Assembly (NCBI GenBank): GCA_964544935.1
Contig: CAZJDZ010000004.1
Location: 15,802-79,801 of the forward strand
Source of the DNA: an uncultured Candidatus Saccharibacteria bacterium
GTDB taxonomy: Bacteria > Patescibacteriota > Minisyncoccia > Phycocordibacterales > UBA5272
Direction of reading: 5' to 3'
Length of the DNA: 64,000 nucleotides
Shown: one piece after another, positions 8,880 to 61,113 of the stretch
How positions within the stretch are numbered: the stretch's first letter is position 1
How the letters are laid out: every line of letters begins with the position of its first letter
Made by a program: the position numbers and the translations under genes
Notes under the pieces: generated by a model
What the model saw: only the letters and a program-made list of their open reading frames with translations
Told to the model about the DNA's origin: nothing
Database searches by the model: none

Positions 8880-9014
8880 ATGTCAATTACATATAACCCA
8901 AAAAGAAAGAAGCGAGGAACCACACACGGATTTCTCGTACGTATGGCTACAAAAGGAGGCCGTAAGGCTATTTCTCGTCGTCGAAGTATTGGACGCAAGA
9001 AACTTTCGGTTTAG
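8880..9014 (+). CDS. rpmH: 50S ribosomal protein L34
   Basis: 44-aa [47 protein letters not shown] (below the ORF-track length cutoff); upstream TTGATT-17-TAGAAT promoter; rpmH-rnpA-yidC order. Confidence 0.85.
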
Positions 9015-9056
9015 TTAGTTGAGAATCTGGTGTTACAAACGCCTTAGTTTCACTCT

Positions 9057-9371
9057 ATGCCACCAAAAAACAAACGTTTTACAAAAGAAGACTTTTTAAA
9101 GGCTCGTCCTAAAGTCTTTTTTCGTGGAGCGTTAGTAGATATTGCATATGTACAACTCCCTACCCAAAAGTTTGCTTGTGTTATTTCTAAAAAAACACTA
9201 AAAACAGCAGTTGTAAGAAATAGTGTTAAAAGAAAGATTATGAATTGTCTTTCCACAATTGAAATCCCAACCCAGCACTCATTTGTTATATACCCAAAAA
9301 AAACAACTAAGGACACCCCCTATTCACTCCTAGATGAGGAAATAAAGAAAGCATTTGCTACACTACACTAA
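9057..9371 (+). CDS. rnpA: RNase P protein component
   Basis: 104-aa basic protein directly after rpmH. Confidence 0.8.
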   Translation: MPPKNKRFTKEDFLKARPKVFFRGALVDIAYVQLPTQKFACVISKKTLKTAVVRNSVKRKIMNCLSTIEIPTQHSFVIYPKKTTKDTPYSLLDEEIKKAFATLH

Positions 9372-9372
9372 T

Positions 9373-10095
9373 ATGTTTCATACATTTTTCTACGAACCAA
9401 TTTATAATCTTATTGTGCTTGTGCTCAACCTCGTCCCTCTTCATGATATAGGAGCAACAATTATTATTGTGACACTTATAGTGAAAGGATTACTCCTTCC
9501 TTTTAATCTTTCAGCACTTCGTACTCAATATGCTATGAAACGAGCTGAGCCAGAAATGAAGCGTATCAAAGAGCTTCAAAAGAAAGATCCAGCAGCGGCA
9601 TCAAAAGCAATGATTGAGATTTATAAAAAGGAAAAAATAAATCCATTCTCTAGTTTGTTTGCAATGATATTACAAGTCCCTATCTTCTTTGCACTATACT
9701 TCGTTTTTTCAAAAGGGTTATTTAATGATCCAAAGTCAATATATTCATTTGTAACATTTCCAGAAACTCTCCACACATTAGCATTTGGACTTTTTGATGT
9801 AACACAAAAAAGTATTTTCATAGCACTTCTAGCAGGGTTTTCTTCATATAGACTTGCACTTCGTCAAACACAAGGAATGGGAGAAACGAAAGAGTCACAA
9901 GAAGAGTCATTCCAAAATCAGTTTATGAAATCAATGAAAATACAAATGGTGTATGTACTTCCTGTGATTATTATTTTTTCAGGAATGGTTCTTCCGTCAG
10001 CGCTTTCCTTGTATTGGTTTATTAGTAATATAGCAAGTATTTTTCTTGATATATACACAAAGAATAAGTTGGCACATTTAAAACCAGCACATTAA
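9373..10095 (+). CDS. yidC: membrane protein insertase YidC (short form)
   Basis: multi-TM protein with KRAEPEMKRIKELQKKD and PFSSLFAMILQVPIFFALY; ORF track start 9355 is TTG, first ATG at 9373. Confidence 0.8.
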   Translation: MFHTFFYEPIYNLIVLVLNLVPLHDIGATIIIVTLIVKGLLLPFNLSALRTQYAMKRAEPEMKRIKELQKKDPAAASKAMIEIYKKEKINPFSSLFAMILQVPIFFALYFVFSKGLFNDPKSIYSFVTFPETLHTLAFGLFDVTQKSIFIALLAGFSSYRLALRQTQGMGETKESQEESFQNQFMKSMKIQMVYVLPVIIIFSGMVLPSALSLYWFISNIASIFLDIYTKNKLAHLKPAH

Positions 10096-10157
10096 AAATA
10101 TAGAGGGTAGACCGCCTCGCTGGTAGAAGATGGAGTATAGAGGATAGAGAGGAGATG

Positions 10158-10200
10158 TAAGACAAATGCGCGACACCGAAGGTGTCGCGCATTTGTCTTA
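10158..10200. terminator. bidirectional intrinsic terminator (TAAGACAAATGCGCGACACC-GAAG-GTGTCGCGCATTTGTCTTA)
   Basis: 20-bp stem between convergent yidC (+) and the SLT gene (-); related to hairpins at 1313 and 33157. Confidence 0.65.
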
Positions 10201-10241
10201 CACAGACTTAATAAGAAAGACTTAGGCATAGTTATACGTAG

Positions 10242-11210
10242 TTATAATGAGTCAAGGCAAGTAGTGAGCTCACAGGCATAATTTTTTACACTACACATAT
10301 TAAAAGTACCATCCCCTGGATTGATAGGACAAACCCATTTTGGAACAGCATTTTGAAATCCTGTCTGTGTGGTACAGTCTACACTTGGTGCGTTTGGAGG
10401 GGTTCCATTTCCACAACAGTTGTATGAAGCAAAAACAGAAGCTACTGCAGGGACACTTAAATATGTTTGAGAAGAGGCACTTATTTTTTGTTTCATACGT
10501 CGCACCCCTTCTGTAATATTATCTACTACAGAATATGAAGCATCTGTACAACTGCCATTTTGATTGATTTGCATTAAACCACAATCAAATGTTCCGTTAT
10601 CATTTTGGTGAGATCTGTTTGGAACTGCACCAGACTCTTTACACATCGTTACAATAGTCATTTTTTTAAGCATCGAGTCCCCTCCTGTTGCTTGATCAAT
10701 AATAGATTCATATTGTTTCCAGTTACAACCAGTGAGAGTTTTACATACTGTTCCTGCACAAACATTTCCGGACTGTAGTTTTTGTATAATACCAGCGGAG
10801 GATTCACATGCTTTTGAAGAGCCTCCACTCCCAACACTTGTTCCACTTGGAATAGCTGCAACCCCTCCCCCAAACCTTTTCGTCGCTAACGCCCCTAACC
10901 CTATCTCTCCATTCACTAACCCTTTGTTAACCGTAAACAAGATAAGAAACAAAGAAAACACACCAAGTAGTCCAAGAGTTACTTTCTTAATCTTCTCTTT
11001 ACTTTGTCTAATTGATGCTTCAGAAGCTTGCACCTGTAGCATTCCCGCTCCTACTAGTTGAAAAAAAGCAGCAATCACAATTGCTGTAAAGAAGAGTCCA
11101 TATATAAATGAAGATGTAGCAAAGAATGATATAGATTCCCCTGCTTTAAACGAAGGAGCAGTCATACCAAGAGCGGTGAGGTTGGAGGGTTCGAGAGAGG
11201 TATATTCCAT
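10242..11210 (-). CDS. membrane-anchored lytic transglycosylase (SLT domain), VirB1-like T4SS cell-wall hydrolase
   Basis: N-terminal two-TM hairpin, then Cys-rich domain with ES...GLMQIN (SLT catalytic Glu and GLMQ motif). Confidence 0.6.
   Translation of the reverse strand: MEYTSLEPSNLTALGMTAPSFKAGESISFFATSSFIYGLFFTAIVIAAFFQLVGAGMLQVQASEASIRQSKEKIKKVTLGLLGVFSLFLILFTVNKGLVNGEIGLGALATKRFGGGVAAIPSGTSVGSGGSSKACESSAGIIQKLQSGNVCAGTVCKTLTGCNWKQYESIIDQATGGDSMLKKMTIVTMCKESGAVPNRSHQNDNGTFDCGLMQINQNGSCTDASYSVVDNITEGVRRMKQKISASSQTYLSVPAVASVFASYNCCGNGTPPNAPSVDCTTQTGFQNAVPKWVCPINPGDGTFNMCSVKNYACELTTCLDSL
10878..11201 (-). repeat. 324-bp repeat copy A (5' module of SLT gene)
   Basis: nucleotide-identical to 13110-13433 as far as read; encodes identical 108-aa anchor YTSLEPSNLTALGMTAPSFKAGESISFFATSS...GLGALATK. 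Confidence 0.8.
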
Positions 11211-11215
11211 AACTA

Positions 11216-12511
11216 CTAATTTTCACCAAGAAGATTTGTGTTAAGAAGCCACAAAGAAGAATCTTGCTTCTTTGTAAAGCTTACAAAGAAATTATCTTCA
11301 GATGTAGTTAGTTTAATGATATCAAAAGCGCCCTCTTCCTCTTTAAAGGAATATAAAGAGTATTGTTCACCTGTTCGTACATCAATGGTAAAAAGATCAT
11401 CACTAAAAGAAATTCTTCCTTGGAGCCAGTCATCTGGTAACCCTTCCGTTACTCTGGGTATTGTTCTAGGGATAGCACATACAAAAAAGTCTTTAGTCTG
11501 TATAGCACACTTAGGTGCAAGTGTTGCAAAAGGAAGAACCCGAAGTGTTCCATTTTGAGAAAGAAATGTTGCAAGACCATTTTTCCCCCACATGCTATTT
11601 AACAGAGTTCCTTGGGATAAAGGGAGTGTCATAAGACCTGTTTTTTCAGCAACCTCTCCTTCAAATCGAGGTAAGCTAAGAGTCGCCCCTTCTATATATG
11701 CAGATGGTTTAGTTGTTACATACAGCGTATTCCCTCCGTATGAAATAGCCCATTCCCTAAATGGTGAAGAGGTTATGAATGTAGGATTTTTTGATGCAGT
11801 AACAGAATAGATAGCGCTTCCATTATCTGTCGCGACAACATATGAGCTTTCTGTTTTTGCTTGGTTAACAGCAACAGCAAGTACTTGAGAAGTTAAGTAT
11901 TCAATGTTCCCAAGAGGAGACGCTTCCGTTGATTGATTGATTGAGGGGACATTTGCGATTAGTCCAACAATTGTATTTTTTGTTTGATCTACATAACGCA
12001 TAATCACACGTCTCCCATTATCAAAAAAGTAAGCATCGTGCACCCCAGGGATTACAGAGTTACTTATTTGAAAAACCTGACCAGTCTCTAGTGGATAACC
12101 ATAAATATATCCAGTTGTTGCATCAACAAAGATAACCACAGTTGTTGTCGCACGAATAGTTTTCTTAACTTCAATTGTTGTTGTTCCTTGAGTGCTTGTT
12201 GCAGTAATTTCTTTGAGTACTTGAGTGGTGATAAATGTTTGACCTGTTGCTGGCTTTCCCCAGATTTTTACAAGAGGCATTGCAAGAGGGTTTGTTACTT
12301 CTGTTGTTGAAGAGTTAGTATCTTCACCATTAATCCAATCAGATATAAACTGAAATCGAGGAGGAAATGTTCTTGTCGGGATTGGATCATTTGTTGACTG
12401 TAATGAAGGAGCAATTACTGGTTTTGCATAGAAAAAATACCAAACAAGAACAATAACAACAAAAAATAGTACGAACCCAACAGCTATACGCAAACGACGG
12501 TTACTTTCCAT
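11216..12511 (-). CDS. hypothetical N-terminally anchored extracytoplasmic protein (beta-rich, Thr/Val-rich)
   Basis: single N-terminal TM (VGFVLFFVVIVLVWYFFYA); 431 aa; sits between the two hydrolase paralogs. Confidence 0.4.
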   Translation of the reverse strand: MESNRRLRIAVGFVLFFVVIVLVWYFFYAKPVIAPSLQSTNDPIPTRTFPPRFQFISDWINGEDTNSSTTEVTNPLAMPLVKIWGKPATGQTFITTQVLKEITATSTQGTTTIEVKKTIRATTTVVIFVDATTGYIYGYPLETGQVFQISNSVIPGVHDAYFFDNGRRVIMRYVDQTKNTIVGLIANVPSINQSTEASPLGNIEYLTSQVLAVAVNQAKTESSYVVATDNGSAIYSVTASKNPTFITSSPFREWAISYGGNTLYVTTKPSAYIEGATLSLPRFEGEVAEKTGLMTLPLSQGTLLNSMWGKNGLATFLSQNGTLRVLPFATLAPKCAIQTKDFFVCAIPRTIPRVTEGLPDDWLQGRISFSDDLFTIDVRTGEQYSLYSFKEEEGAFDIIKLTTSEDNFFVSFTKKQDSSLWLLNTNLLGEN

Positions 12512-12641
12512 ATAAAGAAGTATAGCAAGGATAGATAAGAGATTATAGAGTATAAAGTGCTAGAACTAATTACTTTGTATATAGTAAGTACAGTGAATCT
12601 ACTGTATTGTAGTACCTTACAAACCTTACAGCTAAGTTTTT

Positions 12642-13451
12642 TTATTTATATATGTGCCAATGTGCGGCTGTATTTTTTTCATCACAAAAAATATAACCAA
12701 AATTTTTATAGGTTGCTTTACAAAAACCAAGTGTTGGTCCTGGGGTGAAATTACGAACACAAGCATTAAGAGTCACATCATTAATTCCAAGGTCAACAGG
12801 AGTTCTTCCTGGACCATGACTGCTATGACCAGCTTCTGTTCCCCCTGTTACCTGTATAGAACCACCACAGGTACTTTTCAAGCTTTGAAGCATTATAAGT
12901 GTCTCTGGGTGCATTCCACCTACAGTTGTACATTCAGTAGCGGTAGGAGAAGAACATACTGATTTGTTTACAGTAATTCCTAGTTGTCTTAATTTTTCAC
13001 GAACAACAGGGTCTTCGTTAATAGCATTTTGCATACTATTGTTCCCAGATGGGGATCCGGCTCCTCCTGAAGGTGCTTGAGCGCCAATAGAGATACTTGT
13101 GCTAGTCCCTTTCGTCGCTAACGCCCCTAACCCTATCTCTCCATTCACTAACCCTTTGTTAACCGTAAACAAGATAAGAAACAAAGAAAACACACCAAGT
13201 AGTCCAAGAGTTACTTTCTTAATCTTCTCTTTACTTTGTCTAATTGATGCTTCAGAAGCTTGCACCTGTAGCATTCCCGCTCCTACTAGTTGAAAAAAAG
13301 CAGCAATCACAATTGCTGTAAAGAAGAGTCCATATATAAATGAAGATGTAGCAAAGAATGATATAGATTCCCCTGCTTTAAACGAAGGAGCAGTCATACC
13401 AAGAGCGGTGAGGTTGGAGGGTTCGAGAGAGGTGTAGGATACAGATTGCAT
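12642..13451 (-). CDS. membrane-anchored LAS-type (M15/VanY-like) zinc peptidase, putative peptidoglycan peptidase
   Basis: same 108-aa anchor as 10242-11210; C-terminal SSHGPGRTPVD (H-x7-D) and HWH (H-x-H) motifs characteristic of LAS metallopeptidases. Confidence 0.5.
   Translation of the reverse strand: MQSVSYTSLEPSNLTALGMTAPSFKAGESISFFATSSFIYGLFFTAIVIAAFFQLVGAGMLQVQASEASIRQSKEKIKKVTLGLLGVFSLFLILFTVNKGLVNGEIGLGALATKGTSTSISIGAQAPSGGAGSPSGNNSMQNAINEDPVVREKLRQLGITVNKSVCSSPTATECTTVGGMHPETLIMLQSLKSTCGGSIQVTGGTEAGHSSHGPGRTPVDLGINDVTLNACVRNFTPGPTLGFCKATYKNFGYIFCDEKNTAAHWHIYK
13110..13433 (-). repeat. 324-bp repeat copy B (5' module of LAS peptidase gene)
   Basis: identical to 10878-11201; offset 2232 bp, same strand. 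Confidence 0.8.
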
Positions 13452-13466
13452 GTACTCTAGTATAAA

Positions 13467-14438
13467 CTATTTTCTTGTATCAAAAATAAGTTCCGTTTCT
13501 AGTTCTGCATTTTGAAGAACCCTTGTTGGACCTGCTATTTTAATCGTAAGTAATTTTGAACCATAACTATTTTCTTTTGGATGAAGAGCAAGAAGTCTTC
13601 CTCCAAGTGGGGTCGATGGAAGGCCATCCAAAAACCATGTATATGTAGGACTCTTTGTCTCTTTGTCTGATACATAAAAAGGTTCAAGAGAAAGTGTAAA
13701 GTCCTTCACCACTTCAAATCTTCGTTCTATAAGATTCTTGAGTGTTGTACCGAATATCTGATCATATACATACAGAAGTGGCATAACAGGATGAGGAGTG
13801 ATAGTTATTGTTTTTGTTGCAGTAGTTCCATTCGGACTGTATACAACAACTCGGATATCATCACTATCCTGTAAGTAGTTGAGCTCTATGGTTGCTGACT
13901 GTTTACCATACCCAGAATAATTTTTAAGAAGCTGATCATCAATATACCAGCTATATGAAAGTGTTGCTGGGTCAAGCATGACACCTTTGTCACTCATCTG
14001 AGGTATCGCAGTAACTCTCACTGTTGCTCCGTCAGAAGGAAGAGATCTTCCTTCATAGAGTACAGGAACATAACTTTTAGGTGCTTCATAGATAAGTATT
14101 ACTGACGAAGGTGTGATTGAGAGTGTTTTGGTTACAAAGCTACCATCAGCAAGCTCAGCTTTTACAAAAATACGTGAAGTCACTCCAACATCAGCTGTTT
14201 GAAGTGTAAGAGTATCAGCACCTCTACCTTGAAGAATGGTATTTCCATCCATTTGCCATGTAATAAATGCGATCCCAGTATTAAAAGAATAACTCGAAAG
14301 AGTTATACGAACCGTGCTTTTTGGCGATGGGTTCGGTGGATCAAGTGTTATAAACGCATCTGTTTGTTGTGCATATGCGTGTGTACAGAAGAAAAAGAGA
14401 TAGATGCAAGAAGAAAGAATTGTAATTATTTTTTTCAT
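13467..14438 (-). CDS. hypothetical secreted protein (signal peptide), T4SS-associated
   Basis: MKKIITILSSCIYLFFFCTHAYA signal peptide; 4-nt overlap with the VirB4 stop suggests translational coupling. Confidence 0.45.
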   Translation of the reverse strand: MKKIITILSSCIYLFFFCTHAYAQQTDAFITLDPPNPSPKSTVRITLSSYSFNTGIAFITWQMDGNTILQGRGADTLTLQTADVGVTSRIFVKAELADGSFVTKTLSITPSSVILIYEAPKSYVPVLYEGRSLPSDGATVRVTAIPQMSDKGVMLDPATLSYSWYIDDQLLKNYSGYGKQSATIELNYLQDSDDIRVVVYSPNGTTATKTITITPHPVMPLLYVYDQIFGTTLKNLIERRFEVVKDFTLSLEPFYVSDKETKSPTYTWFLDGLPSTPLGGRLLALHPKENSYGSKLLTIKIAGPTRVLQNAELETELIFDTRK

Positions 14439-16264
14439 ACACCTTTTGATTGTTCAACCTCCTCCTTCATTTCTTGAATTTTAAGAAGTTGAGAAGGGTC
14501 ACTTGTGATAATCTGATCCTCTGTATATGAAGCAACAACTTTAAGTGCCACATGTTTAAGACCTGCAAAAAAGATCCCTTCCCCCACACCGGACTCTAGA
14601 AGTAAGAACTTTTCTTCATTAGTAAGATTAAAAGTTTTTTGAACAATATCAATTGAAGACGGGGATTGTTTGAGAAGAATTTGAATTGAAGAGTTGGTAA
14701 TAATTGGAAGACCATATGGAGATTTAAGAAAATCCCCTACGTCTTGTGTAATTGTTGCAAGTCCTAAATAATATTTTCTTCCACGTTTTGCAAGACCAAA
14801 AAGGAAAGATGCTGTATCATCGTTTTTCATCATGATCCACGCTTCATCTACCACAAGGAGTCGCTTACGAAGATTTTTACGAACAGCGTTCCAGATGAAA
14901 TGTGTGATGAGATACATAGCAACTGGCTTGAGGTCATCTTCCATGTCTCGAATAGAAAAACAAACAAGCTTCTTGTTGATGTCCACATTTGAAGGCTGGT
15001 TGATGAACCCTGACCATGTCCCTTTTGTATATTTTGAGATTCTTTGAACAAGACTTTCAGACCCCTCTATTCCTGAGAGTACAGTTTCAAAATCAGAAAG
15101 AAGTGGTGGTTCTAGTTTTGTAAAATCAGTATCACCATTAATATCTTTAAGTGCATACGTTTCGGTAATTGCCTGATCGATAATAGCGTCTTCCTCAGGA
15201 GTAAGACCTCCAAGCATCACACGAAAAAGTCCAACCAAGTTCACAATGTTTGATCTAAGCACCTCTGAAGGAGATTCATCTTGTGTTGGATGTGGCAAGT
15301 CAAATGGGTTGATATGGTGTTCCCCAACAAGTGAAATATCAAAGTAACGGCCACCAACAGATTCTGCAAGAAATTCATATTCGCGTTCTGGGTCAATGAT
15401 AATTACTTCAGTATCAAACATAAGAGTTCGCAGAATTTCAAGTTTTGTAAAATAACTTTTTCCAGAACCAGATTTTGCAAACACAATTGAATTGTAGTTC
15501 TCCATTGAGAAGCGATCAAAGAGAATGAGACTACCATTGTGACGATTAAGTCCATACAAGATCCCTCTATCAGAAGAAAGATCAAAAGAAACAAATGGGA
15601 AAAACGAAGACAAAGGAGATGTGTTAAGCTTGTTTTTTATCTGTAACAAATCTTGTCCAACTGGAAGTGTTGAAATAAAACCTGCATCTTGCTGGAAAAG
15701 TGCCGGCTTAACGTACACAAGTTTACTTTCAAGAATATTTTTAATTTCATTTTCTGCCTTATCTATTTCTTCATTTGTTTTACCATAAAGAGTAATATAC
15801 AAAGATACTTCAAACATCTTCTCTTGAGCTTGTGTAAGGCCGTCACGAAGATCTTCAAGATCTTGGTAAGCAACATCAAGTGTCGGGTCTCTTACCATCC
15901 CCTTTTCATCACGAGTCATGATTTGACTCTGTACCTCTGCCACCTTTCTTTGAAATGTCTTCATGACTTCACTCGTATTAAGTGGAACAATATGAATTGA
16001 AATATCAAAAACCTTATCAAGGTTAATAACTGGACTTAGCCAGTTATCAGTAAGGTATCTAGGGTATGAAATAACAAAAAAAGAACGCGTAATTGACGTG
16101 CCTAAGTTAAGCGCTTTTGATTGCACTTCAAGTGCACTCGGTGCAATAATATCTTTTAATTGCATCTCAGCAATCTTATACACCTGCTCTGGTAATACCG
16201 GAGTGATGAGCGATTTATGTTCAGGCTCTGCCTTTTTTTTGTTTAAAAAATCAAAAAGTCCCAT
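14435..16264 (-). CDS. virB4: VirB4/TrbE-family conjugal-transfer ATPase (Gram-positive PrgJ/TcpF type)
   Basis: Walker A FAKSGSGKSYFTK, Walker B LLVVDEAW; N-terminal DIIAPSALEV...YPRYLTDNWLSPVI region typical of monoderm VirB4. Confidence 0.8.
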   Translation of the reverse strand: MGLFDFLNKKKAEPEHKSLITPVLPEQVYKIAEMQLKDIIAPSALEVQSKALNLGTSITRSFFVISYPRYLTDNWLSPVINLDKVFDISIHIVPLNTSEVMKTFQRKVAEVQSQIMTRDEKGMVRDPTLDVAYQDLEDLRDGLTQAQEKMFEVSLYITLYGKTNEEIDKAENEIKNILESKLVYVKPALFQQDAGFISTLPVGQDLLQIKNKLNTSPLSSFFPFVSFDLSSDRGILYGLNRHNGSLILFDRFSMENYNSIVFAKSGSGKSYFTKLEILRTLMFDTEVIIIDPEREYEFLAESVGGRYFDISLVGEHHINPFDLPHPTQDESPSEVLRSNIVNLVGLFRVMLGGLTPEEDAIIDQAITETYALKDINGDTDFTKLEPPLLSDFETVLSGIEGSESLVQRISKYTKGTWSGFINQPSNVDINKKLVCFSIRDMEDDLKPVAMYLITHFIWNAVRKNLRKRLLVVDEAWIMMKNDDTASFLFGLAKRGRKYYLGLATITQDVGDFLKSPYGLPIITNSSIQILLKQSPSSIDIVQKTFNLTNEEKFLLLESGVGEGIFFAGLKHVALKVVASYTEDQIITSDPSQLLKIQEMKEEVEQSKGV

Positions 16265-16269
16265 ATAAT

Positions 16270-16902
16270 TTATTGTGTAACTTTAGGAGCCGCTCTGTCT
16301 CCTTCACTTGGATTAAAGAGTTTATAGAAGAGCTCAACCACCTCCTCTGTTCCAAGTCTTTGAGCACGAAGCCCAAAACGAGAAAGTCCTTGTAGTACAG
16401 TTGCTGTACGTTGTTCAAGTTGAATACGTGCAGCTTCAAACCCTGTCTCAATATTTTTTGATGAACTGTTGCCCCCTAAAGAAAGAAGAGAAGAAGGGCT
16501 TGTTCCTTGAGCGCTTTGATTGAAGTATGGAACAGTAACAAAAAAGTGTTTGGTCATGATGTTACTTTCTTCGGTGAACTTAGCTATGAATCCCATATAT
16601 TCATGGATCTGGATCTTGAGCAAATCTTCTTTTACCTCCCCACTTCGTTCTTTAAGGAGGTCCATATATGGTTTGATATTAAGTTTTCTTGATTGCACAA
16701 AAATCTCTACAGGAAAATCAAGTGAATTAAGAAAATTTTGAAACTGGGACAGTACTGCTTGCTGCTCATCTTCACTTTTGAGTCCAAGGTTAAGTGAGTT
16801 GGTGAGCAAGATAGCACGAAGTTCCCCTGTCTTTAAAATAACAATACCATCGCGTACACGCTCAATTGGAACAAACTCTTGTGTTGATAGTCCTTTAGCC
16901 AT
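16270..16902 (-). CDS. T4SS-associated protein resembling the extra N-terminal domain of long (Tn916 Orf16-type) VirB4 proteins
   Basis: FVPIERVRDGIVILKTGELRAILLTNSLNLGLKSEDEQQAVLSQF pattern; stop TAA lies 5 nt upstream of the VirB4 ATG in a different frame. Confidence 0.45.
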   Translation of the reverse strand: MAKGLSTQEFVPIERVRDGIVILKTGELRAILLTNSLNLGLKSEDEQQAVLSQFQNFLNSLDFPVEIFVQSRKLNIKPYMDLLKERSGEVKEDLLKIQIHEYMGFIAKFTEESNIMTKHFFVTVPYFNQSAQGTSPSSLLSLGGNSSSKNIETGFEAARIQLEQRTATVLQGLSRFGLRAQRLGTEEVVELFYKLFNPSEGDRAAPKVTQ

Positions 16903-16932
16903 ATCTACAATACAGTATACCCTAAGAATTTT

Positions 16933-17364
16933 TTACTCCCTATCCTCTTTCTGTGAGTTGTGTTCAAAAACATCAAGTCCAAGTGCAAGATCATGAATTT
17001 TATCTCGATTTGTTTTTTGAATAATAATTTCTTTTTGAGTGTTTGCAACAACTTGATCAACTGAAGTTTCATTCTTTTTCATTTCTGGTTGTCTCCATGT
17101 GTAGACTTTTGCACCAGTGTAATAATTAAAAGCACTTTCTAATATTTCACCAAAAGATCTGTTGTTGTATTTTACAAAAGCAAGTGAAAGAAATAGTCCT
17201 GCAACAGGAATAATCAAAAGTATTGCAAGAAATTTAATTGGCATAAATGTCCAAATAAGAAACGAGGTTCCTCCAGCGCCAACTAAGTAGCCAAACTGTT
17301 TTAAGGTAAAAGGGCCGAAGACTTTATCTTCCATATCGATGAATTGTGGTACTCGAAATTGCAT
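16933..17364 (-). CDS. PrgI/VirB3-like small membrane protein
   Basis: VPQFIDMEDKVFGPFTLKQFGYLVGAGG followed by two TM helices; positioned upstream of virB4 as PrgI is to PrgJ. Confidence 0.5.
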   Translation of the reverse strand: MQFRVPQFIDMEDKVFGPFTLKQFGYLVGAGGTSFLIWTFMPIKFLAILLIIPVAGLFLSLAFVKYNNRSFGEILESAFNYYTGAKVYTWRQPEMKKNETSVDQVVANTQKEIIIQKTNRDKIHDLALGLDVFEHNSQKEDRE

Positions 17365-17485
17365 ATAGATAGTATAACAAAAAATACTAGACGTAGATAA
17401 GACATATAAGATAGTAAGATAAAAAGACTGTTTTGCTTACTAGACAAACGGTCTAAAAGTCTTACATTCTTCTTGTCTTGTTTGT

Positions 17486-18226
17486 CTATTCTTCCGAATA
17501 TTCTCTATATGGATCAACGTTATATTTTGTTGGAGCTACACTGTAGGTTGAGTGATTAACTGTTGCGTCAGCAACATCCTTTCCTTTTTCCCCAAACATA
17601 AAGCTTTTAAGGGCGATCTTAGAAGTGAGACTATTATCCTCTTCTTGCTTTTTAATTGCACCAATCTGCTCCTGAATATGCTTGAGACGCTCCCCTATTT
17701 CTTCATCATTTGGAATAGAACTAAGAACTTGTAATTGTTCAAGGAGTTGAGAGCGTGACCCTGGAGCAATCACGGTTGTTTTCTTAGGAAGTGGAGATGA
17801 TTGGTCTTTGTTAATGCCAGACTCTCTTTTTGTTGTATCGAGAATAGACTTACGAAGTTCGTCCTTTGTTTTATCTCCTTGATACTCAAGTGTCTTTACT
17901 TCGCCGCTTTTCTTAAAAAGTGAAATACGAGCCTTCTCAAGGATCGATCCCTCAAGGTCTGTAGCTATATGGATAGCATCCTCACTATTTACATCAACAA
18001 GTTCTTGAAGGGCTTGCACAACATCATCTGGCTGTATTGCTCCAATCAAAATAAAAGAAATGATATTAGAAAGCGCGATTTGCTTACCAATTGGAATTTT
18101 ATATTTTGCTCCAAGGGTGAGAGTTGCTTGGTCTAAATCACCATTAAGAATCAGATCCTGAACAGCAGGCTCTGCGCTATCAAAAAGTTCATCATGGTTA
18201 CTTGCGATGTACGACGGTAGGCTCAT
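17486..18226 (-). CDS. hypothetical protein in T4SS-like block
   Basis: 246 aa, no motif recognised. Confidence 0.35.
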   Translation of the reverse strand: MSLPSYIASNHDELFDSAEPAVQDLILNGDLDQATLTLGAKYKIPIGKQIALSNIISFILIGAIQPDDVVQALQELVDVNSEDAIHIATDLEGSILEKARISLFKKSGEVKTLEYQGDKTKDELRKSILDTTKRESGINKDQSSPLPKKTTVIAPGSRSQLLEQLQVLSSIPNDEEIGERLKHIQEQIGAIKKQEEDNSLTSKIALKSFMFGEKGKDVADATVNHSTYSVAPTKYNVDPYREYSEE

Positions 18227-18252
18227 AACTTATAGTATATAGTATGTCTTTC

Positions 18253-21105
18253 TTAAGCTTGTGCAGTAGCGGTGGATTCTGGTTGGATAGATGTCTCTGT
18301 TTGAGAGGAGTTAGCAGCTGGAGGAACTGGAGGAGTAACAACTTTGGAAGAAGATTGTACTGGGATAGATGAAGGACGCACTTCTGGTGGATGAGGTTGA
18401 CTGATAGAAGCATTCGCTGCCCCTCCGGCATCAGCACGTTGTTGTACAAGTTTTTGTTGCATTTGACGCTTTTGTGCTACGCGTTGTGCAAAGCTACTTG
18501 TGTTGATAGAAAATTCAGCAGCATTTTCTATTGATCGATTTTGTTTATCTTTTGCCTCTGCAAGAATTTTGGTATCAGAATCTACCAAAGTAGAATCTTT
18601 TTGATCGACCACTTTTTGAGCTCTATCAACCTCAGCAGCTCTACCCTCTTCAACTTTCCTTATACGTTCCTCACGAAGTGCTGCACCAGCAAGAGGTCCG
18701 CCTAAGGTTTTGGTTGCTTCTTGGGAAGAAGCTGAGGCAGACCCCCCAGATCTTTTTGCAATAATTGCCTCTTTAACATCTGCACTCTGTCGAGCGAAAT
18801 AGTCTTTCTTTTTTTCTTCACTCATATCCTTGAGTTCATTTTCAACACGAAGAACCTCTTTGTTTAGATTCTCCTGAATTCCTTTCTCCTCTTTTTCTAT
18901 ATCATGCATCACTCGAGAAAGTGCCATACCTCTGTTACTTTCAAGTTTTGGATCGCTCCTCTTAAGCTCATCCATCTCTTTTTTGACTTGTTCAGTGAAC
19001 ATTTTTTTACCATCCTTACCCTCTTTTTTATAGTTGGCAAGTAATTGACCTCCAGTCTCGTCAACATAAGTATCGCCTAGTTTGTTTCTTTGGTCTTTTG
19101 TTAAGAAAAGAGCACCCCCGTTGTTTGAAAGATATTCTTCTCGTCTCTTTACAGCTTCTTCGTCCTCTTCTCCTTTTCTATGCCACTTACCGTCTGAGCC
19201 TATTCCATCTCGTTCGTACTTTGTTTTTATTCTGTCGGCACGAGCCATAACACTTTTAACACGCTTCTCATCTCGAGCATTTTTAATTTCTTCATGACCG
19301 AGTTTTGAACCCATCCCCATCCCCATCCCAAGTTTCTTTGCGGCTCCTGCAACATACGTGCTGTTACGTAGATCAAAGGTACTATTAGCAACAGAGTTAG
19401 AAAGGTCATACGCACGACGTCCAAGGAATGAGTTTTCGTTCTTTTTTACCCACTCACTCTCTCTTGCTTTAAGAGCAAGTCCACCTAAACCTTTTCGCGC
19501 AAGAAGACCTGCTCCACCCGCAGCAACTCCAAGTCCAAATCCTCCAACCTTACCTATTCCTTCAGTTGCCCAAGTTCCTACTGTTCCCGAGACACTAACG
19601 GTTACCTTGATCATGATATGCAGCATGATGAGCATCATGATGATGTTGAAGAATACAGGGATAGTTGTAGAAACAGGACCAGAAAGACTTCCTAAACCAG
19701 AAGAAGTAAGTGCTCCTGTTGTATGGAATACTTCCAAAAATTTAAGCGTAAGAGCAAGCATAATCATAAACACAGGACCAACCGCAAGTTGTTCAAAAAG
19801 AATCTTTCGAAGAAACTTTGCTCTCTCTCCAAGTACTGGAATAACCGCATCAACAAGTAAAAGTGGGGATGCAATAGTAAGAAACACAAGCGATACTGTG
19901 CGCCCTATCATGATAATGGTAACTCGTATAAAAATAAACGCAGCATATGCAACAAAAGCAACTGCTGCAAGAGCTGCAGGGACGCTGCTAAGCTCACCAA
20001 GCATGTTGCCAGTAGTGTTCGTAGTTGCACTAAACACTAAACCACTTAACCCAAGTGCACTCACAATAAGTGCCCCTGCTGTGTTCTCTGATGTTCCAGA
20101 AAGTGCACTACTTCCTACTGCTGAAGCATAAATATTAAGTGAAATAATATTTGAAATATCAATCGCTGTACGGATAAGTGGATATGAAAAGTTAACAAAA
20201 AGTCCAAACATAACCACCCACGGGATATATCGTTCAAATGTCTCCTCCTTTCCTAAGATATACATGAATCCTAAGTAGAGTCCTATGAAGACAATAGCAA
20301 GTGAGATGATTTGTCGAATAATAATCCAAATAGGATAGAGTGTGTCCGGTGCCCAATCGGAGAAATGAAGAATCCCTACTTGAATTGAAGTGTTAAAAAT
20401 ATTTGCAGAAGCCCAGAGTAAGAAACCAGCAAACTCAAGAAGTGTATTCTTAATAATCCAAGTTATTCCTTCATTGATACAGGCCACAAGACTCCATCTC
20501 CAAAGAGTACAAGTTCCTGTATCTTGTGCGCTAACAATTTTATCAGTTTGTGTCTGTGCGTTAGCTATCGCATCAGGATTTGAGTTAAGGTTTCCAGAAG
20601 AACCGCCGCTATTAATTGTTTTTGCTATTTCTAATTCTGTTCGTAACTGAGCTTGAAAAGCATTGTAGATGGACATTGCTTGAATTTTATTCATGTCACC
20701 ACTTAACGGCGGAATACTGCTTCCTAAGCTTTTTTGTGTTTCTGTAAGAGCTTTTATCTGTGCTTCAGGCGGGGAGAGTTTTGTATCATAAGAATTAAGG
20801 TATACGGTTTTAGCGGTACTTACTGCTGTTAGTAATTTAGGTGCTAATGTTTTATATATTTCATATCGAGCTTTACCCTCATCTGTTTGAAGTTTAGAAG
20901 CAGCATCTAAGCCTTGGTTTATTGCTACGGTATAGTTATCAAAAATTTTTGCGACATTACCTTTTGCAGTGTCATGAGTGTAGTTAGTCGAGTTGTAAGA
21001 AATTATGTTTGCTGATTGAGCATGAGTTTTTTGAGGCGTTGAAAAACCACCAAAAAGGCTTACAGAAAGGAGAATAAGAGAGATGACTACACCAAGTCTT
21101 TTCAT
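18253..21105 (-). CDS. VirB6/TrbL-like polytopic membrane protein with long charged coiled-coil C-terminal extension
   Basis: signal peptide, at least 6 central TM helices, K/E/R-rich tail with GMGMGMG and Pro-rich end; 950 aa. Confidence 0.5.
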   Translation of the reverse strand: MKRLGVVISLILLSVSLFGGFSTPQKTHAQSANIISYNSTNYTHDTAKGNVAKIFDNYTVAINQGLDAASKLQTDEGKARYEIYKTLAPKLLTAVSTAKTVYLNSYDTKLSPPEAQIKALTETQKSLGSSIPPLSGDMNKIQAMSIYNAFQAQLRTELEIAKTINSGGSSGNLNSNPDAIANAQTQTDKIVSAQDTGTCTLWRWSLVACINEGITWIIKNTLLEFAGFLLWASANIFNTSIQVGILHFSDWAPDTLYPIWIIIRQIISLAIVFIGLYLGFMYILGKEETFERYIPWVVMFGLFVNFSYPLIRTAIDISNIISLNIYASAVGSSALSGTSENTAGALIVSALGLSGLVFSATTNTTGNMLGELSSVPAALAAVAFVAYAAFIFIRVTIIMIGRTVSLVFLTIASPLLLVDAVIPVLGERAKFLRKILFEQLAVGPVFMIMLALTLKFLEVFHTTGALTSSGLGSLSGPVSTTIPVFFNIIMMLIMLHIMIKVTVSVSGTVGTWATEGIGKVGGFGLGVAAGGAGLLARKGLGGLALKARESEWVKKNENSFLGRRAYDLSNSVANSTFDLRNSTYVAGAAKKLGMGMGMGSKLGHEEIKNARDEKRVKSVMARADRIKTKYERDGIGSDGKWHRKGEEDEEAVKRREEYLSNNGGALFLTKDQRNKLGDTYVDETGGQLLANYKKEGKDGKKMFTEQVKKEMDELKRSDPKLESNRGMALSRVMHDIEKEEKGIQENLNKEVLRVENELKDMSEEKKKDYFARQSADVKEAIIAKRSGGSASASSQEATKTLGGPLAGAALREERIRKVEEGRAAEVDRAQKVVDQKDSTLVDSDTKILAEAKDKQNRSIENAAEFSINTSSFAQRVAQKRQMQQKLVQQRADAGGAANASISQPHPPEVRPSSIPVQSSSKVVTPPVPPAANSSQTETSIQPESTATAQA

Positions 21106-21177
21106 AGCACTAGTGTATCATATAACCTTTATAGAAATGGATTGTTGGTAAACGTAAACAATTTTCTGTAAAGTAAA

Positions 21178-22911
21178 TTATTTCTCTGCATCCTTGCGTG
21201 TATCTATACAGTTTTGATTGAATGTATTAAGGTTTCCTACGTCTACAGATTCTTGTAATGTGGCTTTGTGTATAAGGTACGCACCTTGTTCTACCGCAGA
21301 GGCACTTATACCTTCAGGTAAGCCTTGATTTTTTACTGTAGATTGAAAGTTGTTAAAAATTGAAAGAATTTCTTCTGTTGATTGAGATATATTAATTTTT
21401 GAAATAGTTTCATCAATAAGTGTGATTTCAGTTTGAGCGCGCACTTGATCAGCTAGTAGTTTTCCTCGTGTTGAACTAGATCCATTATATTCTCTTGCAT
21501 AATAGGTGTTATAAAAATTTCTTGCTGCTACAACAGGTCCATTAACTATTATATTATCAGGATAATCTAAAGAGAGTCTTTCAAAACACTGAAGCATGGT
21601 ATCCATCGCAGCTTTTTCATTTTCTATAGATGTAAGATGGTTAGCTTGCCAGCCGAGCAGTCCCCCAAGAGCAGTTTTTTGTCCTGACAAGAAATCAAGA
21701 GGGGTTTTTGTAAGATTAGTTTTTCCGGATGAATCATTTAAAAGGTCGTTAGTATATCCTCCTGTCCCTCCCCCTGTACCAGTTCCTCCCCCACTTCCGA
21801 CACCAAGCTGGCTGCCAATTTGTTGTGTTAAGGAAAGTGTATTCATTGCCACGCCAACAACAGACATGATTCCAGAAGCACTATTACCAATTGTTGCAAG
21901 TTGAGGTTTAATTGTATCAAATGAATTCTTGAAGCTTTCGTTAATAGAGTTTGCTGTCTGTGTTATTTTTTCTTGTACACATGGAGCAGTAAGATCCCCT
22001 GTCTCATATTTTGTGCCATCTATTTTTGTTGCAACTCGTTTTGTACAAGTGGTTACACTGCGAAGCCCTCCCCCTGATTTCAGATCTTCTACAGCTGCTT
22101 GCGCTATCTGGTTTTTTCTCGCCTCAACTTCTTGCTCTATACGCTGAGATCTACAGAACTCATTGTCGCAAGACGTCATAGCAAGAAAACTATCAAGCGA
22201 CGGATTTTGTTTATTGATAGCTGTGAGCGCTGCTCGTGTATTGGGGTCACTGAGATCGCCACAAAGGGCGTCGCTCAGCTCTTTTTTACGGGTTGTATAT
22301 GCGGCACGATACTCTTCTTGTGTGTAGCTGCCACTAGAGTTACTAATGTCTTTTTCTGCTTGAGATGAAAGAGCGGCATCAGTACATCTCCTCTTCTGTT
22401 CCATCGCAGGAATATTTGATTGATTGATGGACGCAATTCTATCATCTAGAGTTCTGTTTTGATATCGTGTTCTTTGGATAAGATTAGCCATAACACTGTC
22501 ACTGTAAGGGCCATTTTGTTCTGTGAGGCTCCCTATTGCTTGTTGAGTAACTCCATTTGATTTGTTACGTAGATATTCCTCAGGGTCTGCCACAAGAAGC
22601 GCATTTTCTTGGCCCATGGTTCCTCGTACCAAATTCTGTATTCCATTGTTAGAGGATATAATTGCTCGTAAAGTAAGAACACTGTTCATAGGAGTAAGAA
22701 CGTCTCTATTAACCTGTGATAGTACATCTAGTGTTGCGCTTGTCATAACACCACTACCAATAACTCCTTGTGTAGCGTAGTCTTTAACCATTTGAACAAG
22801 TGCAGCCGGATCAAAAACAATATCTCCAGCTCCAAAAAGTGTATGAGCTTTGTGTGTCGAAGAAGACGTTATTGCAAGAAGAAGAATTGATGTAAAAAAT
22901 ATTTTTTTCAT
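21178..22911 (-). CDS. hypothetical secreted Cys-containing protein with Gly-rich linker (possible surface or pilus-tip component)
   Basis: signal peptide MKKIFFTSILLLAITSSSTHKA; GVGSGGGTGTGGGTGG segment; 577 aa. Confidence 0.4.
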   Translation of the reverse strand: MKKIFFTSILLLAITSSSTHKAHTLFGAGDIVFDPAALVQMVKDYATQGVIGSGVMTSATLDVLSQVNRDVLTPMNSVLTLRAIISSNNGIQNLVRGTMGQENALLVADPEEYLRNKSNGVTQQAIGSLTEQNGPYSDSVMANLIQRTRYQNRTLDDRIASINQSNIPAMEQKRRCTDAALSSQAEKDISNSSGSYTQEEYRAAYTTRKKELSDALCGDLSDPNTRAALTAINKQNPSLDSFLAMTSCDNEFCRSQRIEQEVEARKNQIAQAAVEDLKSGGGLRSVTTCTKRVATKIDGTKYETGDLTAPCVQEKITQTANSINESFKNSFDTIKPQLATIGNSASGIMSVVGVAMNTLSLTQQIGSQLGVGSGGGTGTGGGTGGYTNDLLNDSSGKTNLTKTPLDFLSGQKTALGGLLGWQANHLTSIENEKAAMDTMLQCFERLSLDYPDNIIVNGPVVAARNFYNTYYAREYNGSSSTRGKLLADQVRAQTEITLIDETISKINISQSTEEILSIFNNFQSTVKNQGLPEGISASAVEQGAYLIHKATLQESVDVGNLNTFNQNCIDTRKDAEK

Positions 22912-22924
22912 ACGTGAGTCATGA

Positions 22925-23866
22925 TTATTCTAAAGTATACCCTATTGTAAACACATACCCAGATTCATTCGCATTAAATACAATATTTTTGAGAGTAAAG
23001 TACTCGCTAAGTTTTTTGTAAATAAGAAGTGTTCCAACAAGTGTGTCTGGGTACTTATCAAGCGCAATCTTTGCTCGAATAGGATCAGAGACCCCTTTTG
23101 ATAAATCAAGGAGCACATCTCTGTAAAGAGTTATCTGATTAAGCATTGTAATATGATAAAGCGATGCAGATGGAGGAACAGAAAGTGCGAGAAGTTTTTT
23201 TAGTATTGCATCTATACGAGCAGACTCTGTTTTGAGGCGGATTATATCAGACACCCCTTCTTGGTCCTGTGACGACGCAAATGCTGCAAGAGCCTCAGCA
23301 TCTTTTGTAATAGTCCCTTCAGTAATTATTCCTTGTATAATAGTGGCAACAGTATTCCCGTATGCTTTGATTGTGTCCCTGCTCTCACTAGACGCTACAC
23401 GAATTTCACTATAAAGGTATTTTTTTGAAGTAACTTTTTGTGCTTCTTGAGTGATGAGTTCTTCAATGATCTTCTGTTGCTCCTCTGCACTCACTCCCCC
23501 TGCGTTAATAATCTGATTTGAAGCAAGATAAATGTTTTTTGAAAATGAAGAAGTGAGATTGTTTGGGTCATTAAGTGCCGCAAGCGTTTCTGCACTTGGT
23601 GGGTTATTCTTTGCTTCAGCAATAATAGCATCTCCATATTTGGTGCTTCTGGTAAGTTCCTCCCACGTTACTTTTCCGTCATCGTCGTTATCGTACGTAT
23701 CAACATCCGAAGCTCTAAGTTGAGTGAAATCAATCGGAGTGTATCCATTTTTTCTTGTCTCTACTCCAAACCAACTTGCAGGAACAAATGCGCTCATAAT
23801 AAAAACTGCAATAAGCAGTGCAAAAAACATGTATGACCTAGATATGTCTTTTCGATCAGGACTCAT
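22925..23866 (-). CDS. hypothetical N-terminally anchored protein with EF-hand-like calcium-binding loop
   Basis: TM helix FFALLIAVFIMSAFV; DNDDDGKVTWEE matches the 12-residue EF-hand loop D-x-D-x-D-G-x-V-x-x-x-E. Confidence 0.4.
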   Translation of the reverse strand: MSPDRKDISRSYMFFALLIAVFIMSAFVPASWFGVETRKNGYTPIDFTQLRASDVDTYDNDDDGKVTWEELTRSTKYGDAIIAEAKNNPPSAETLAALNDPNNLTSSFSKNIYLASNQIINAGGVSAEEQQKIIEELITQEAQKVTSKKYLYSEIRVASSESRDTIKAYGNTVATIIQGIITEGTITKDAEALAAFASSQDQEGVSDIIRLKTESARIDAILKKLLALSVPPSASLYHITMLNQITLYRDVLLDLSKGVSDPIRAKIALDKYPDTLVGTLLIYKKLSEYFTLKNIVFNANESGYVFTIGYTLE

Positions 23867-23958: not shown

Positions 23959-24762
23959 TTATTTGCTAAGTAATGAAGCAAGTAAGAGCCAAGAAGAAAG
24001 AGGCACGTCTTCAGCGCGTACTTTTTCTGAAAGGTCTATTTCTTTAAAAAGTGAAATAACATCATTGTCTACAAAAACAGATTTGATATTTGAAAGTGCA
24101 AACTTTCTTTTGTGAGCAAACGCTGCATGAATGAGTTTAAAAAAAATAGCCTCATGGTACTGGTTTTTAAAATTATTCTTAGAAATATTTTTGATTTGTA
24201 GCACAGCAGAGTCGACAGTTGGAATTGGGTTGAAGCTCCCCTTGTTTACTTTGTAGACAAGTTTTGGCTCGCCGTAGACTTTGACTGAAAGTGAAAGAAG
24301 TGATTCTTTGCCGTCTCGTGCGCAGACACGTTCAGCAACTTCTTTTTGCACAAGAACTACCATTGTACTTGGTTGGTATGTATGAGAGAGAAATTTAGAA
24401 AGAATAGCTCCAGTGATGTAATAGGGAATGTTAGCTATTAGCTTGTAGCTATTAGCTTGTAGCTTGTAGTTTTGAGGCTCAAATTCTAAGACGTCACCCT
24501 CGATGAGAGTAAGTTGATGAGAAGCGATTTCTGATGAGAAGTTTTCGGTAAGTAATGGGAGTAAATCTCTGTCTTTTTCAAGAGCAACAATAGATGCTCC
24601 AGATTCTAAAAGAGCCTTAGTAAGAAAGCCTTTTCCAGGACCAATTTCTAGAATTGTATCAGTAGGAGTTATTTCACCAGCGGAAACAATCTGCATACGA
24701 GCAGGAATAGAAGTGAGGAAGTTCTGTCCGAGAGATTTTTTTGGAGCGTGGTATGACGACAT
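23959..24762 (-). CDS. rsmA: 16S rRNA (adenine1518/1519-N6)-dimethyltransferase
   Basis: LGQNFL, ILEIGPGKGFLT SAM motif, LIANIPYYITG (NLPY motif); ORF track extends to 24783. Confidence 0.85.
   Translation of the reverse strand: MSSYHAPKKSLGQNFLTSIPARMQIVSAGEITPTDTILEIGPGKGFLTKALLESGASIVALEKDRDLLPLLTENFSSEIASHQLTLIEGDVLEFEPQNYKLQANSYKLIANIPYYITGAILSKFLSHTYQPSTMVVLVQKEVAERVCARDGKESLLSLSVKVYGEPKLVYKVNKGSFNPIPTVDSAVLQIKNISKNNFKNQYHEAIFFKLIHAAFAHKRKFALSNIKSVFVDNDVISLFKEIDLSEKVRAEDVPLSSWLLLASLLSK
24433..24468 (-). repeat. AGCT-heptad repeat inside ksgA/rsmA (AGCTACA/AGCTAAT units)
   Basis: minus strand reads AGCTACAAGCTAATAGCTACAAGCTAATAGC; encodes YKLQANSYKLIAN (near-duplicate in frame). Confidence 0.6.
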
Positions 24763-24818
24763 GGTATGAAGAGACTCTAGCATTTTTTCTCGGAAGATTC
24801 TATCTGGTGTAGAGAAAA

Positions 24819-24845
24819 GAAGGCGCGGCCGTAGGCCGCGCCTTC
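24819..24845 (-). terminator. intrinsic terminator (GAAGGCGCGGCC-GTAG-GCCGCGCCTTC)
   Basis: follows the pcrA/uvrD-like gene on the minus strand. Confidence 0.5.
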
Positions 24846-24926
24846 TGTAGCACCCTTTCCATTATTTGTGTGATGTATTTGTCTGACATCTGTCAGCGAA
24901 GCGGTCTATGTTCTCTTGTCTATATT

Positions 24927-31300: not shown

Positions 31301-31571
31301 AGATAGCCCCAGTATACTTTAATTTACAAGTCTTTTAGACCACTTCTCCACATCTATAGGGGTACAATTCTATTGTACTTACCAAGTACAATTTGGTATA
31401 CTAGGGGCACACTCCTTACAGGGGGAAATTCTTGACAAAAATTTCTTATGTATTATTACAAAGAAATTTTTTGTCTTCATCAAAAAGAATTATAGTTTCT
31501 ATAATTTTACCAAACTTATTGTAGTAGATACTCAAAAACGCTTCCATAGAGCGTCATATACCGCCCCCTTT

Positions 31572-60981: not shown

Positions 60982-61113
60982 CATGGCAACATCTCCTAGT
61001 TGATTACTGGTGAAAGAACATTTGTCTTCCATAACTTTACTAGAGTACAAGTAAAATGTTAAACTGTCGGCGAAAGTCGACAAATATACTCAATCTTTAT
61101 ATTTCTTACACAC

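Follow-up and report, generated by a model that had tools for sequence, protein, structure and literature searches.

A block of 11 genes in the 64 000-nucleotide stretch analysed here (hereafter the window; contig CAZJDZ010000004.1 of assembly GCA_964544935.1, from an uncultured Candidatus Saccharibacteria bacterium) very probably encodes a resident, vertically inherited type IV secretion system (T4SS) of the Paceibacteria (Patescibacteria; candidate phyla radiation, CPR), probably a member of the MPF_FATA-derived 'Patescibacteria clade'. The locus adds no new kind of system and shows how the Paceibacteria version is built: the reading of it as a resident, non-conjugative T4SS of Gram-positive type is correct but was published previously (2023–2025). 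The new part, not encountered in the papers we searched, is that the sole pilin-like modules of the locus are fused to two wall hydrolases and kept identical within each genome; these fusions and their putative gene conversion are worth specialist attention and leave the classification unchanged. The open reading frames (ORFs) of the block (10242–23866), numbered g1–g11 by coordinate and transcribed from g11 to g1, all lie on the minus strand with intergenic gaps of at most 130 nt (Table 1). An earlier reading of the same DNA, made from the letters and translations only (the sequence-only reading), had proposed 11 co-directional minus-strand genes right after yidC; genes, strand and exact coordinates are confirmed, but the block is convergent with yidC and does not follow it in the same direction.

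The core at the cytoplasmic membrane is composed of VirB4 (g5), TrsD (g6), VirB3/PrgI (g7) and an extended VirB6 (g9). The VirB4 ATPase g5 scores 378.5 bits against NCBIfam conju_CD1110 (curated cut-off 325), matches Pfam P-loop_TraG (E = 2e-24) and the C-terminal domain of T. pseudethanolicus VirB4 (PDB 4ag5; E = 3e-40), and has intact Walker A (GSGKS) and Walker B (VVDE) motifs; the conju_CD1110 score and the 4ag5 match identify it as a VirB4 of the MPF_FATA lineage. Its alignment covers positions 183–733 of the 752 in the conju_CD1110 model and starts only from residue 286 of TrwK. The neighbouring product g6, which has a precomputed Pfam tag of PF26593 (TraC-like), aligns to positions 2–127 of the CD1110 VirB4 model and 103–233 of VirB4_plasma. 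Because g5 and g6 match complementary parts of one VirB4 model, VirB4 is split over two genes, with g6 supplying the N-terminal domain that g5 lacks. The genes for TrsD and PrgI/VirB3 adjoin virB4, as in T4SSs of the Patescibacteria clade. For g9, PF04610 (TrbL/VirB6) is matched by eight of 47 aligned orthologues (best E = 6.5e-7), which makes it a putative VirB6 by transitivity through its orthologues only. It consists of a signal peptide, an outer domain of ∼190 residues, a polytopic core and a charged tail of 406 residues, with about seven hydrophobic helices in the transmembrane (TM) profile; residues Trp260, Arg264, Asn305, Phe306, Ser307, Asp316, Asn319 and Arg402 are invariant among orthologues, and a PDB profile search returned nothing meaningful. 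Of the assignments made in the sequence-only reading, VirB4 and PrgI are thus supported directly by the profile searches, while VirB6/TrbL is supported through orthologues and not by a match of the window protein.

The products g1 and g3 begin with a common module of ∼110 residues, in which a short basic loop connects two hydrophobic helices (in g1, a hairpin of approximately residues 1–111 with TM helices at 35–53 and 77–95); we assign it as a VirB2-like pilin on the basis of homologue Pfam matches, profile–profile alignment and a hidden Markov model (HMM) from distant loci. In other Paceibacteria, the proteins encoded at this position have the module behind a signal peptide; T4SS_pilin (PF18895) is matched by 28 of 50 such positional homologues (best E = 4.7e-10) and TrbC/VirB2 by four of 50. 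A pilin HMM built solely from distant loci and searched against the six-frame translation of the window finds g3 (4.1e-8) and g1 (4.7e-8) and nothing else, and hhalign aligns the module profile of the window lineage with that of the distant loci at 97.4% probability (E = 1.5e-11). No stand-alone pilin is present in the window, where the modules exist only as fusions. The two helices and short basic loop typical of VirB2/TrbC pilins (PF04956 and PF18895) are found in both modules; the small mature size and cleaved leader are not, g1 and g3 being proteins of 322 and 269 residues with enzyme domains. Since the open frames extend just 4–5 codons upstream of the ATG, the window lineage has no leader, in contrast to the distant homologues. 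The C-terminal domain of g1, a protein with 14 cysteines, contains the SLT motifs E-S, GLMQIN and ASYN (ASYNCC); six of its orthologues pass the threshold for SLT (PF01464; E = 1.4e-9) and many database homologues carry this domain. That of g3 has the H-x(n)-D and H-x-H motifs of LAS zinc peptidases on a LAS fold and is likened to MepA, VanX and Hedgehog. The activities would be complementary, with g1 cutting glycan strands and g3 peptides. Some positional homologues in other genomes combine this hairpin with NlpC/P60 or CHAP domains, and in one close relative the g3 orthologue (L014:12793–13611) keeps the pilin hairpin with a C-terminal domain that lacks the LAS motifs of other g3 orthologues; together these suggest an exchange of enzyme domains while the hairpin stays constant. 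The sequence-only reading had described two anchored cell-wall hydrolases, which stands for the SLT-type and LAS-type domains, but the VirB2-like modules had gone unrecognized.

The 5' parts of g1 and g3 that encode the hairpins are identical over 324–327 nt, with unrelated sequence on either side. We compared the modules at the DNA level in ten independently assembled genomes. Identity within a genome is 88–100% (at least 98% in nine of the ten), whereas between genomes it is merely 46–69%. Near-identity within and divergence between genomes indicate that recurrent gene conversion acts on a fast-evolving pilin module. Assemblers may smooth near-identical repeats to 100%, but the within-genome identity is not such an artefact, because the copies still differ slightly in several genomes and different studies show the same pattern. 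We found no description of fused, mutually identical pilin modules in the literature searched; in a survey of Patescibacteria T4SSs the pilins in arrays are at most 54% identical to each other, and 'fusion' and 'fused' are used solely for VirB3–VirB4 (Quinonero-Coronel et al., 2025, Microb Genom, PMC12102498).

The residence of the block is supported by its distribution. A scan of one genome per species with g5 as the query gave at least 547 relatives, and the 80 best g5 loci, mapped by tblastn and ORF mapping, were used for synteny. These best 80 of at least 547 are all in CPR-type metagenome-assembled genomes and are 70–93% identical to g5, in keeping with a place of g5 in the Patescibacteria clade; those with specific titles are mostly Paceibacteria/Parcubacteria (for example Nomurabacteria, Kaiserbacteria, Wolfebacteria and Adlerbacteria), many others being titled generically or automatically. 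The recurring order is uvrD–ksgA–g11–g10–VirB6–g8–PrgI–TrsD–VirB4–(a small polytopic gene, in distant lineages)–g4–pilin-module protein–g2–(g1)–yidC–rnpA–dnaA–dnaN. The overall arrangement dnaN–dnaA–yidC–block–ksgA–uvrD is shared by some 50 or more genomes of Paceibacteria, and gene positions persist even where sequence similarity has faded. The recurrence of this order across Paceibacteria genomes argues that the block is resident, as the sequence-only reading had held, and vertically inherited. The median identity of VirB4 to the window protein in the 65 more distant loci (L016–L080) is 72% (range 70–75), compared with 53% for TrsD, 51% for DnaA, 50% for UvrD, 48% for KsgA, 39% for PrgI, 34% for YidC and 31% for DnaN; the contrast between VirB4 and DnaA is biased upwards, as the loci were selected as the best VirB4 matches, but even given this bias VirB4 is, judging by its sequences, clearly under very strong constraint. 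Conservation of VirB4 beyond that of DnaA across the class, inflated as it is by the choice of loci, argues for a part in core physiology rather than an accessory function. The small polytopic protein (115–250 residues; motifs F-x-D-x-L-Q and L-P-x-W-T) lies between VirB4 and g4 in 38 distant Paceibacteria loci (e.g. L067:11817–12359 and L060:11866–12237) and has no homologue in the window or in the closest relatives (L001–L015).

The same evidence makes it very improbable that the block is a degenerate integrative conjugative element (ICE) that has lost its relaxase, coupling protein and integrase. Its VirB4 does belong to the conjugative CD1110 (MPF_FATA) family and a tyrosine recombinase is encoded at 37008–37952, but the recombinase lies 13 kb off amid housekeeping genes, the slot and gene order are identical in dozens of species and VirB4 appears to be under very strong purifying selection. 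The GC content of the block (0.37–0.42) matches that of the rest of the window, which bears out the native composition claimed in the sequence-only reading; no direct repeats bracket the block, no integrase is adjacent and a tRNA scan of the window found none (an Rfam scan of the window likewise gave no match). We therefore reject the ICE reading on the conserved slot, the native composition and the lack of element boundaries; of the hallmarks of an ICE or a conjugative MPF_FATA system (relaxase, coupling protein, integrase, bounding att repeats and patchy distribution), none is found at the locus. Pfam scans of essentially all sizeable window ORFs outside the block revealed no VirD4/type IV coupling protein (T4CP), VirB11 or relaxase family, so that their absence, already noted in the sequence-only reading, holds for the 64 kb. 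The other ORFs are housekeeping genes (RuvB, RuvC, TyrRS, class A PBP, M23/LysM peptidase, ComM, Xer-like recombinase, PGK and TIM, with further matches to HlyD/FtsX/ABC, NusA, trigger factor, RNase Y, ClpP and a sigma factor), apart from two mid-sized and a few larger ORFs that are Pfam-negative.

A search of 3,035 Patescibacteria genomes had found a monophyletic, MPF_FATA-derived VirB4 clade with TrsD, VirB3/PrgI, VirB6, VirB2-like pilins and VirB1-like hydrolases near virB4; hardly any relaxases occur, T4CP homologues, though common, are seldom beside virB4, and in Paceibacteria and Microgenomatia the neighbourhood is rich in dnaA, dnaN, rnpA, rpmH and ksgA (PMC12102498). The block resembles these systems in its MPF_FATA VirB4, adjacent TrsD, PrgI/VirB3, VirB6, VirB2-like module and VirB1-like hydrolase, in having no relaxase and no adjacent T4CP, and in its dnaA/dnaN/rnpA/rpmH/ksgA context. 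It differs in that VirB2 and VirB1 are separate in the surveyed systems, with pilins of limited mutual identity, whereas the window modules are fused to hydrolases, leaderless and ∼100% identical. In Southlakia epibionticum ML1, epibiotic growth requires the origin-proximal cluster SEML1_0006–0019 (Wang et al., 2023, Cell, PMC10633639); the statement in the sequence-only reading that similar CPR/Saccharibacteria loci are needed for such growth is correct for that one species. The two loci share the proximity to the origin, the order VirB6 … PrgI–TrsD–VirB4 followed by wall hydrolases and the lack of a recognizable relaxase or coupling protein. Six stand-alone pilins (PF18895; 104–185 residues), a large lysozyme-like protein with three such domains but no pilin part, and an NTF2-like (VirB8-like) protein occur only in S. 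epibionticum, and the propeller, Ig-like and TSP3 proteins only in the window.

With the Gram-positive T4SSs (pCF10 Prg, pIP501 Tra and C. difficile CTn2 CD1110), the block shares a CD1110-family VirB4, PrgI and a PrgH/VirB6-like protein. The PrgK/TraG proteins of Gram-positive systems are membrane-anchored hydrolases that combine glycan- and peptide-cutting activities, and the window is likewise predicted to encode both. Unlike these systems, the window lacks a relaxase, a T4CP and an oriT context, its VirB4 is split, and the hydrolase activities reside on two proteins whose anchor is a VirB2-like hairpin, which the Gram-positive systems do not have. The H. pylori ComB and archaeal Ced systems are also VirB4-driven without a relaxase or coupling protein, and Ced has a VirB2-like pilin, which raises the alternative that VirB4 and VirB6 import host DNA as a nucleotide source. 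Such an uptake apparatus would need neither of the two proteins missing from the window, VirB4 shows a weak similarity to CedB (2.2e-9), the g3 hairpin resembles an A. pernix conjugation/Ced-type pilin, ComM is encoded 10 kb away (33228–34784), and the idea has been raised before (PMC11665869), with ABY1-class loci co-localizing with comF, recG and radA (PMC12102498). We nevertheless consider it unlikely: at 36.5 bits, the CedB match falls well short of the cut-off of 700 and reflects generic P-loop similarity, and no homologues of ComB7–10 or CedA (and no CedA/CedA1/CedA2 set accompanying a CedB) were found. In S. epibionticum the T4SS is essential and comEC dispensable (PMC12857230), which also speaks against uptake but implies only an essential role that is independent of ComEC and does not exclude DNA import.

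For the resident T4SS, we propose that VirB4 would drive the building of a channel through the envelope or of a short pilus-like stalk, at which the hairpins of g1 and g3 would dock or co-assemble both hydrolases so that the peptidoglycan is opened. By the positive-inside rule, the basic loop is expected to be cytoplasmic with both termini outward (N-out, loop-in, C-out), which would place the enzyme domains in the wall. VirB4 acts on VirB2 pilins in Gram-negative systems; here it may plausibly dock or extract the hairpins, confining wall cutting to the machine, which would mediate contact-dependent exchange with a host cell and not conjugation. A bolder version, which we regard as quite doubtful, is that this Paceibacteria lineage uses one set of molecules both as pilus subunit and as wall-degrading enzymes. 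VirB4 would then extract the hairpin–hydrolase fusions and co-polymerize both into a short enzyme-bearing stalk, which would attack peptidoglycan, of the host or of the cell itself, at its glycan strands as well as its peptide cross-links; through recurrent gene conversion the hairpins would stay identical and competent for co-assembly while the module evolves fast, and C-terminal swaps on one hairpin (SLT, LAS, NlpC/P60 and CHAP) would retune specificity. Pilus polymerization has not been shown in any Patescibacterium (PMC12857230).

Besides the selection bias in the VirB4 comparison described above, several points weigh against the classification and the roles proposed. The window g9 has no Pfam match of its own, VirB6 falling below the Pfam threshold; no VirB8-like component is recognized in the block; and g1 itself matches SLT (PF01464) with E = 0.016 and 15.2 bits, below the threshold of 21.3. 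Outside the 64 kb, the genome may contain a VirD4-like gene, and such genes occur in 2,918 of the 3,035 Patescibacteria genomes, mostly distant from virB4 (PMC12102498). The function of Patescibacteria T4SSs has been called 'completely unknown' in a perspective (PMC11665869); a 2025 review (PMC12857230) likewise describes it as unknown, and both papers mention effector delivery or uptake from the host. The Patescibacteria T4SS nonetheless belongs to the small number of machines that an epibiotic lifestyle is known to require, and the complementary hydrolases on identical pilin-like hairpins, apparently homogenized by gene conversion in every genome examined (n = 10), offer a testable handle on it. 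If the hairpins are assembly modules, they would link pilus biogenesis to wall breaching in a monoderm T4SS and hint at how these cells reach their hosts.

Of the other products, g2, g4, g10 and g11 are anchored or secreted and g8 is conserved. The propeller protein g2 was modelled with AlphaFold2 (AF2) with a pLDDT of 83.6; the top Foldseek matches in the PDB are WD40 propellers (5e-8, generic) and no T4SS component is among the matches. It has 185 homologues, none with a Pfam domain, and is found at 55 of the 80 related loci. The g4 product has a signal-peptide-like N-terminus and is found at 73 of the 80 loci; 15 of 48 orthologues match BiPBP_C, PKD_6 and Ig_3 are matched too, and the best PDB match is T4 Hoc (1e-4). 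For g11 (TM helix at 13–31), PF18884 (TSP3_bac) is matched by 11 of 46 orthologues (2.8e-10), and a PDB profile search with the helical domain gave nothing meaningful. The g8 family, which is probably cytoplasmic, has positional orthologues that align across Paceibacteria and has no Pfam or PDB match. Its C-terminal D-P-Y-x-E motif (DPYRE, residues 238–242 of g8) is near-invariant in 42 otherwise very divergent positional orthologues and could be a docking peptide. The g10 family is lineage-restricted (three matches in a word-index search and 140 cluster representatives out of 1.84 billion proteins); g10 and its positional homologues have a W-x-N-x-G-F-x-G-x-P motif region in common, a few homologues bear F5/8-type-C (carbohydrate-binding) or Ig-like domains and one close homologue has a precomputed PF13605 tag. 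An assignment of g10 as VirB5/TrbJ-like, from a likeness of the N-terminus (GDIVFDPAxLxQ) to those proteins, gained no support: 43 positional homologues have no VirB5 or DUF4141 Pfam match and a PDB profile search was empty. The sequence-only reading had considered these five proteins to lack recognizable homology, which remains true of g8 and g10 but not of g2, g4 and g11.

These products bear on another alternative, in which the machine is an effector exporter that delivers proteins, possibly including the hydrolases, into or onto a host cell for nutrients. The locus does encode several secreted or anchored Cys-containing proteins besides the two hydrolases, and g10 evolves fast, as do host-interaction proteins; the proposal has been made for related systems (PMC10633639 and PMC11665869). 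However, no T4CP is present in the window for substrate recruitment, and no candidate cytoplasmic effector was identified. The signal-peptide-like N-termini of g4, g9 and g10 and the TM anchors of g2 and g11 would allow exit by Sec, only g1 and g3 being leaderless, and we consider this explanation rather unlikely on balance.

Table 1. Predicted features of the T4SS block and its flanks (window coordinates)
Feature	Coordinates	Strand	Description	Basis or location
dnaN	5960–7051	−		Low-coordinate flank
dnaA	7330–8667	−		Low-coordinate flank
rpmH	8881–9015	+		Low-coordinate flank
rnpA	9057–9371	+		Low-coordinate flank
yidC	9355–10095	+		Low-coordinate flank, convergent with g1
Inverted repeat	10156–10202	n/a	Perfect 22-nt inverted repeat	Between convergent yidC and g1
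g1	10242–11210	−	Leaderless VirB2-like pilin hairpin, linker and Cys-rich SLT-type lytic transglycosylase	
Repeat copy 1	10875–11201	−	5' part of g1, encodes pilin module	Exact repeat
g2	11216–12511	−	N-terminal TM anchor and seven-bladed β-propeller, extracytoplasmic	AF2 model
g3	12642–13451	−	Leaderless VirB2-like pilin hairpin, disordered linker and LAS-type zinc peptidase domain	
Repeat copy 2	13107–13433	−	5' part of g3	Exact repeat
g4	13467–14438	−	Secreted, three tandem Ig-like domains	Orthologue Pfam matches
g5	14435–16264	−	VirB4 ATPase without N-terminal domain	HMM and PDB profile matches
g6	16270–16902	−	TrsD-like, separately encoded VirB4 N-terminal domain	NCBIfam TrsD, 1.8e-7
g7	16933–17364	−	PrgI/VirB3	PF12666, 1.6e-11, 45 bits (cut-off 27)
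g8	17486–18226	−	Conserved protein, helical N-domain, linker and C-terminal D-P-Y-x-E	Orthologue alignment
g9	18253–21105	−	Extended VirB6/TrbL (putative)	Orthologue matches to PF04610
g10	21178–22911	−	Secreted, Cys-containing, fast-evolving, lineage-restricted family	Homologue searches
g11	22925–23866	−	TM anchor, TSP3-like Ca-binding motif (DNDDDGKVTWEE) and conserved helical domain	Orthologue matches
ksgA	23959–24783	−		High-coordinate flank, co-directional with block
Hairpin	24818–24846	−	Strong terminator-like hairpin, 13 pairs, 10 G-C	Between uvrD and ksgA
uvrD	24927–26873	−		High-coordinate flank, co-directional with block

The inverted repeat between yidC and g1 is likely to be a bidirectional terminator; the terminator scan did not call it owing to the lack of a T-run. 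At the other end, the hairpin that parts uvrD from ksgA points to a transcription unit beginning at ksgA or g11. The sequence-only reading had drawn attention to DnaA-box-like motifs in the dnaA–dnaN spacer, but their number is at chance level (16 observed versus 17.2 expected), with only two one-mismatch boxes in the spacer and one upstream of dnaA; as they are not enriched, the boxes cannot place oriC. The cumulative GC skew has its minimum at about 31–32 kb of the window, especially around 31300–31570, where the gene orientation flips from minus (10242–31300) to plus (31572 onward); past the minimum, the skew remains positive even across minus-strand genes. The replication origin may therefore lie ∼23 kb away from dnaA and not beside it, and with either placement no more than ∼20 kb would separate the T4SS block from the origin.

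Other genes of the window were noted in passing. A 1072-residue ORF (28082–31300, minus strand) without a Pfam match contains 165 Lys/Arg and 188 Asp/Glu residues and a single hydrophobic segment near residue 900, and coincides with an AT skew of −0.22 to −0.24. Two further minus-strand ORFs, 52531–55245 (904 residues) and 56559–57569 (336 residues), also have no Pfam match. A member of the fatty-acid hydroxylase family (26952–27740, minus strand; PF04116, 2e-22) is encoded two genes upstream of ksgA, beyond uvrD; this gene is unexpected, as the lineage is said to lack fatty-acid synthesis. A phage Mu Gam-like protein (60406–61083, minus strand; PF07352, 3e-23) is encoded amid housekeeping genes.

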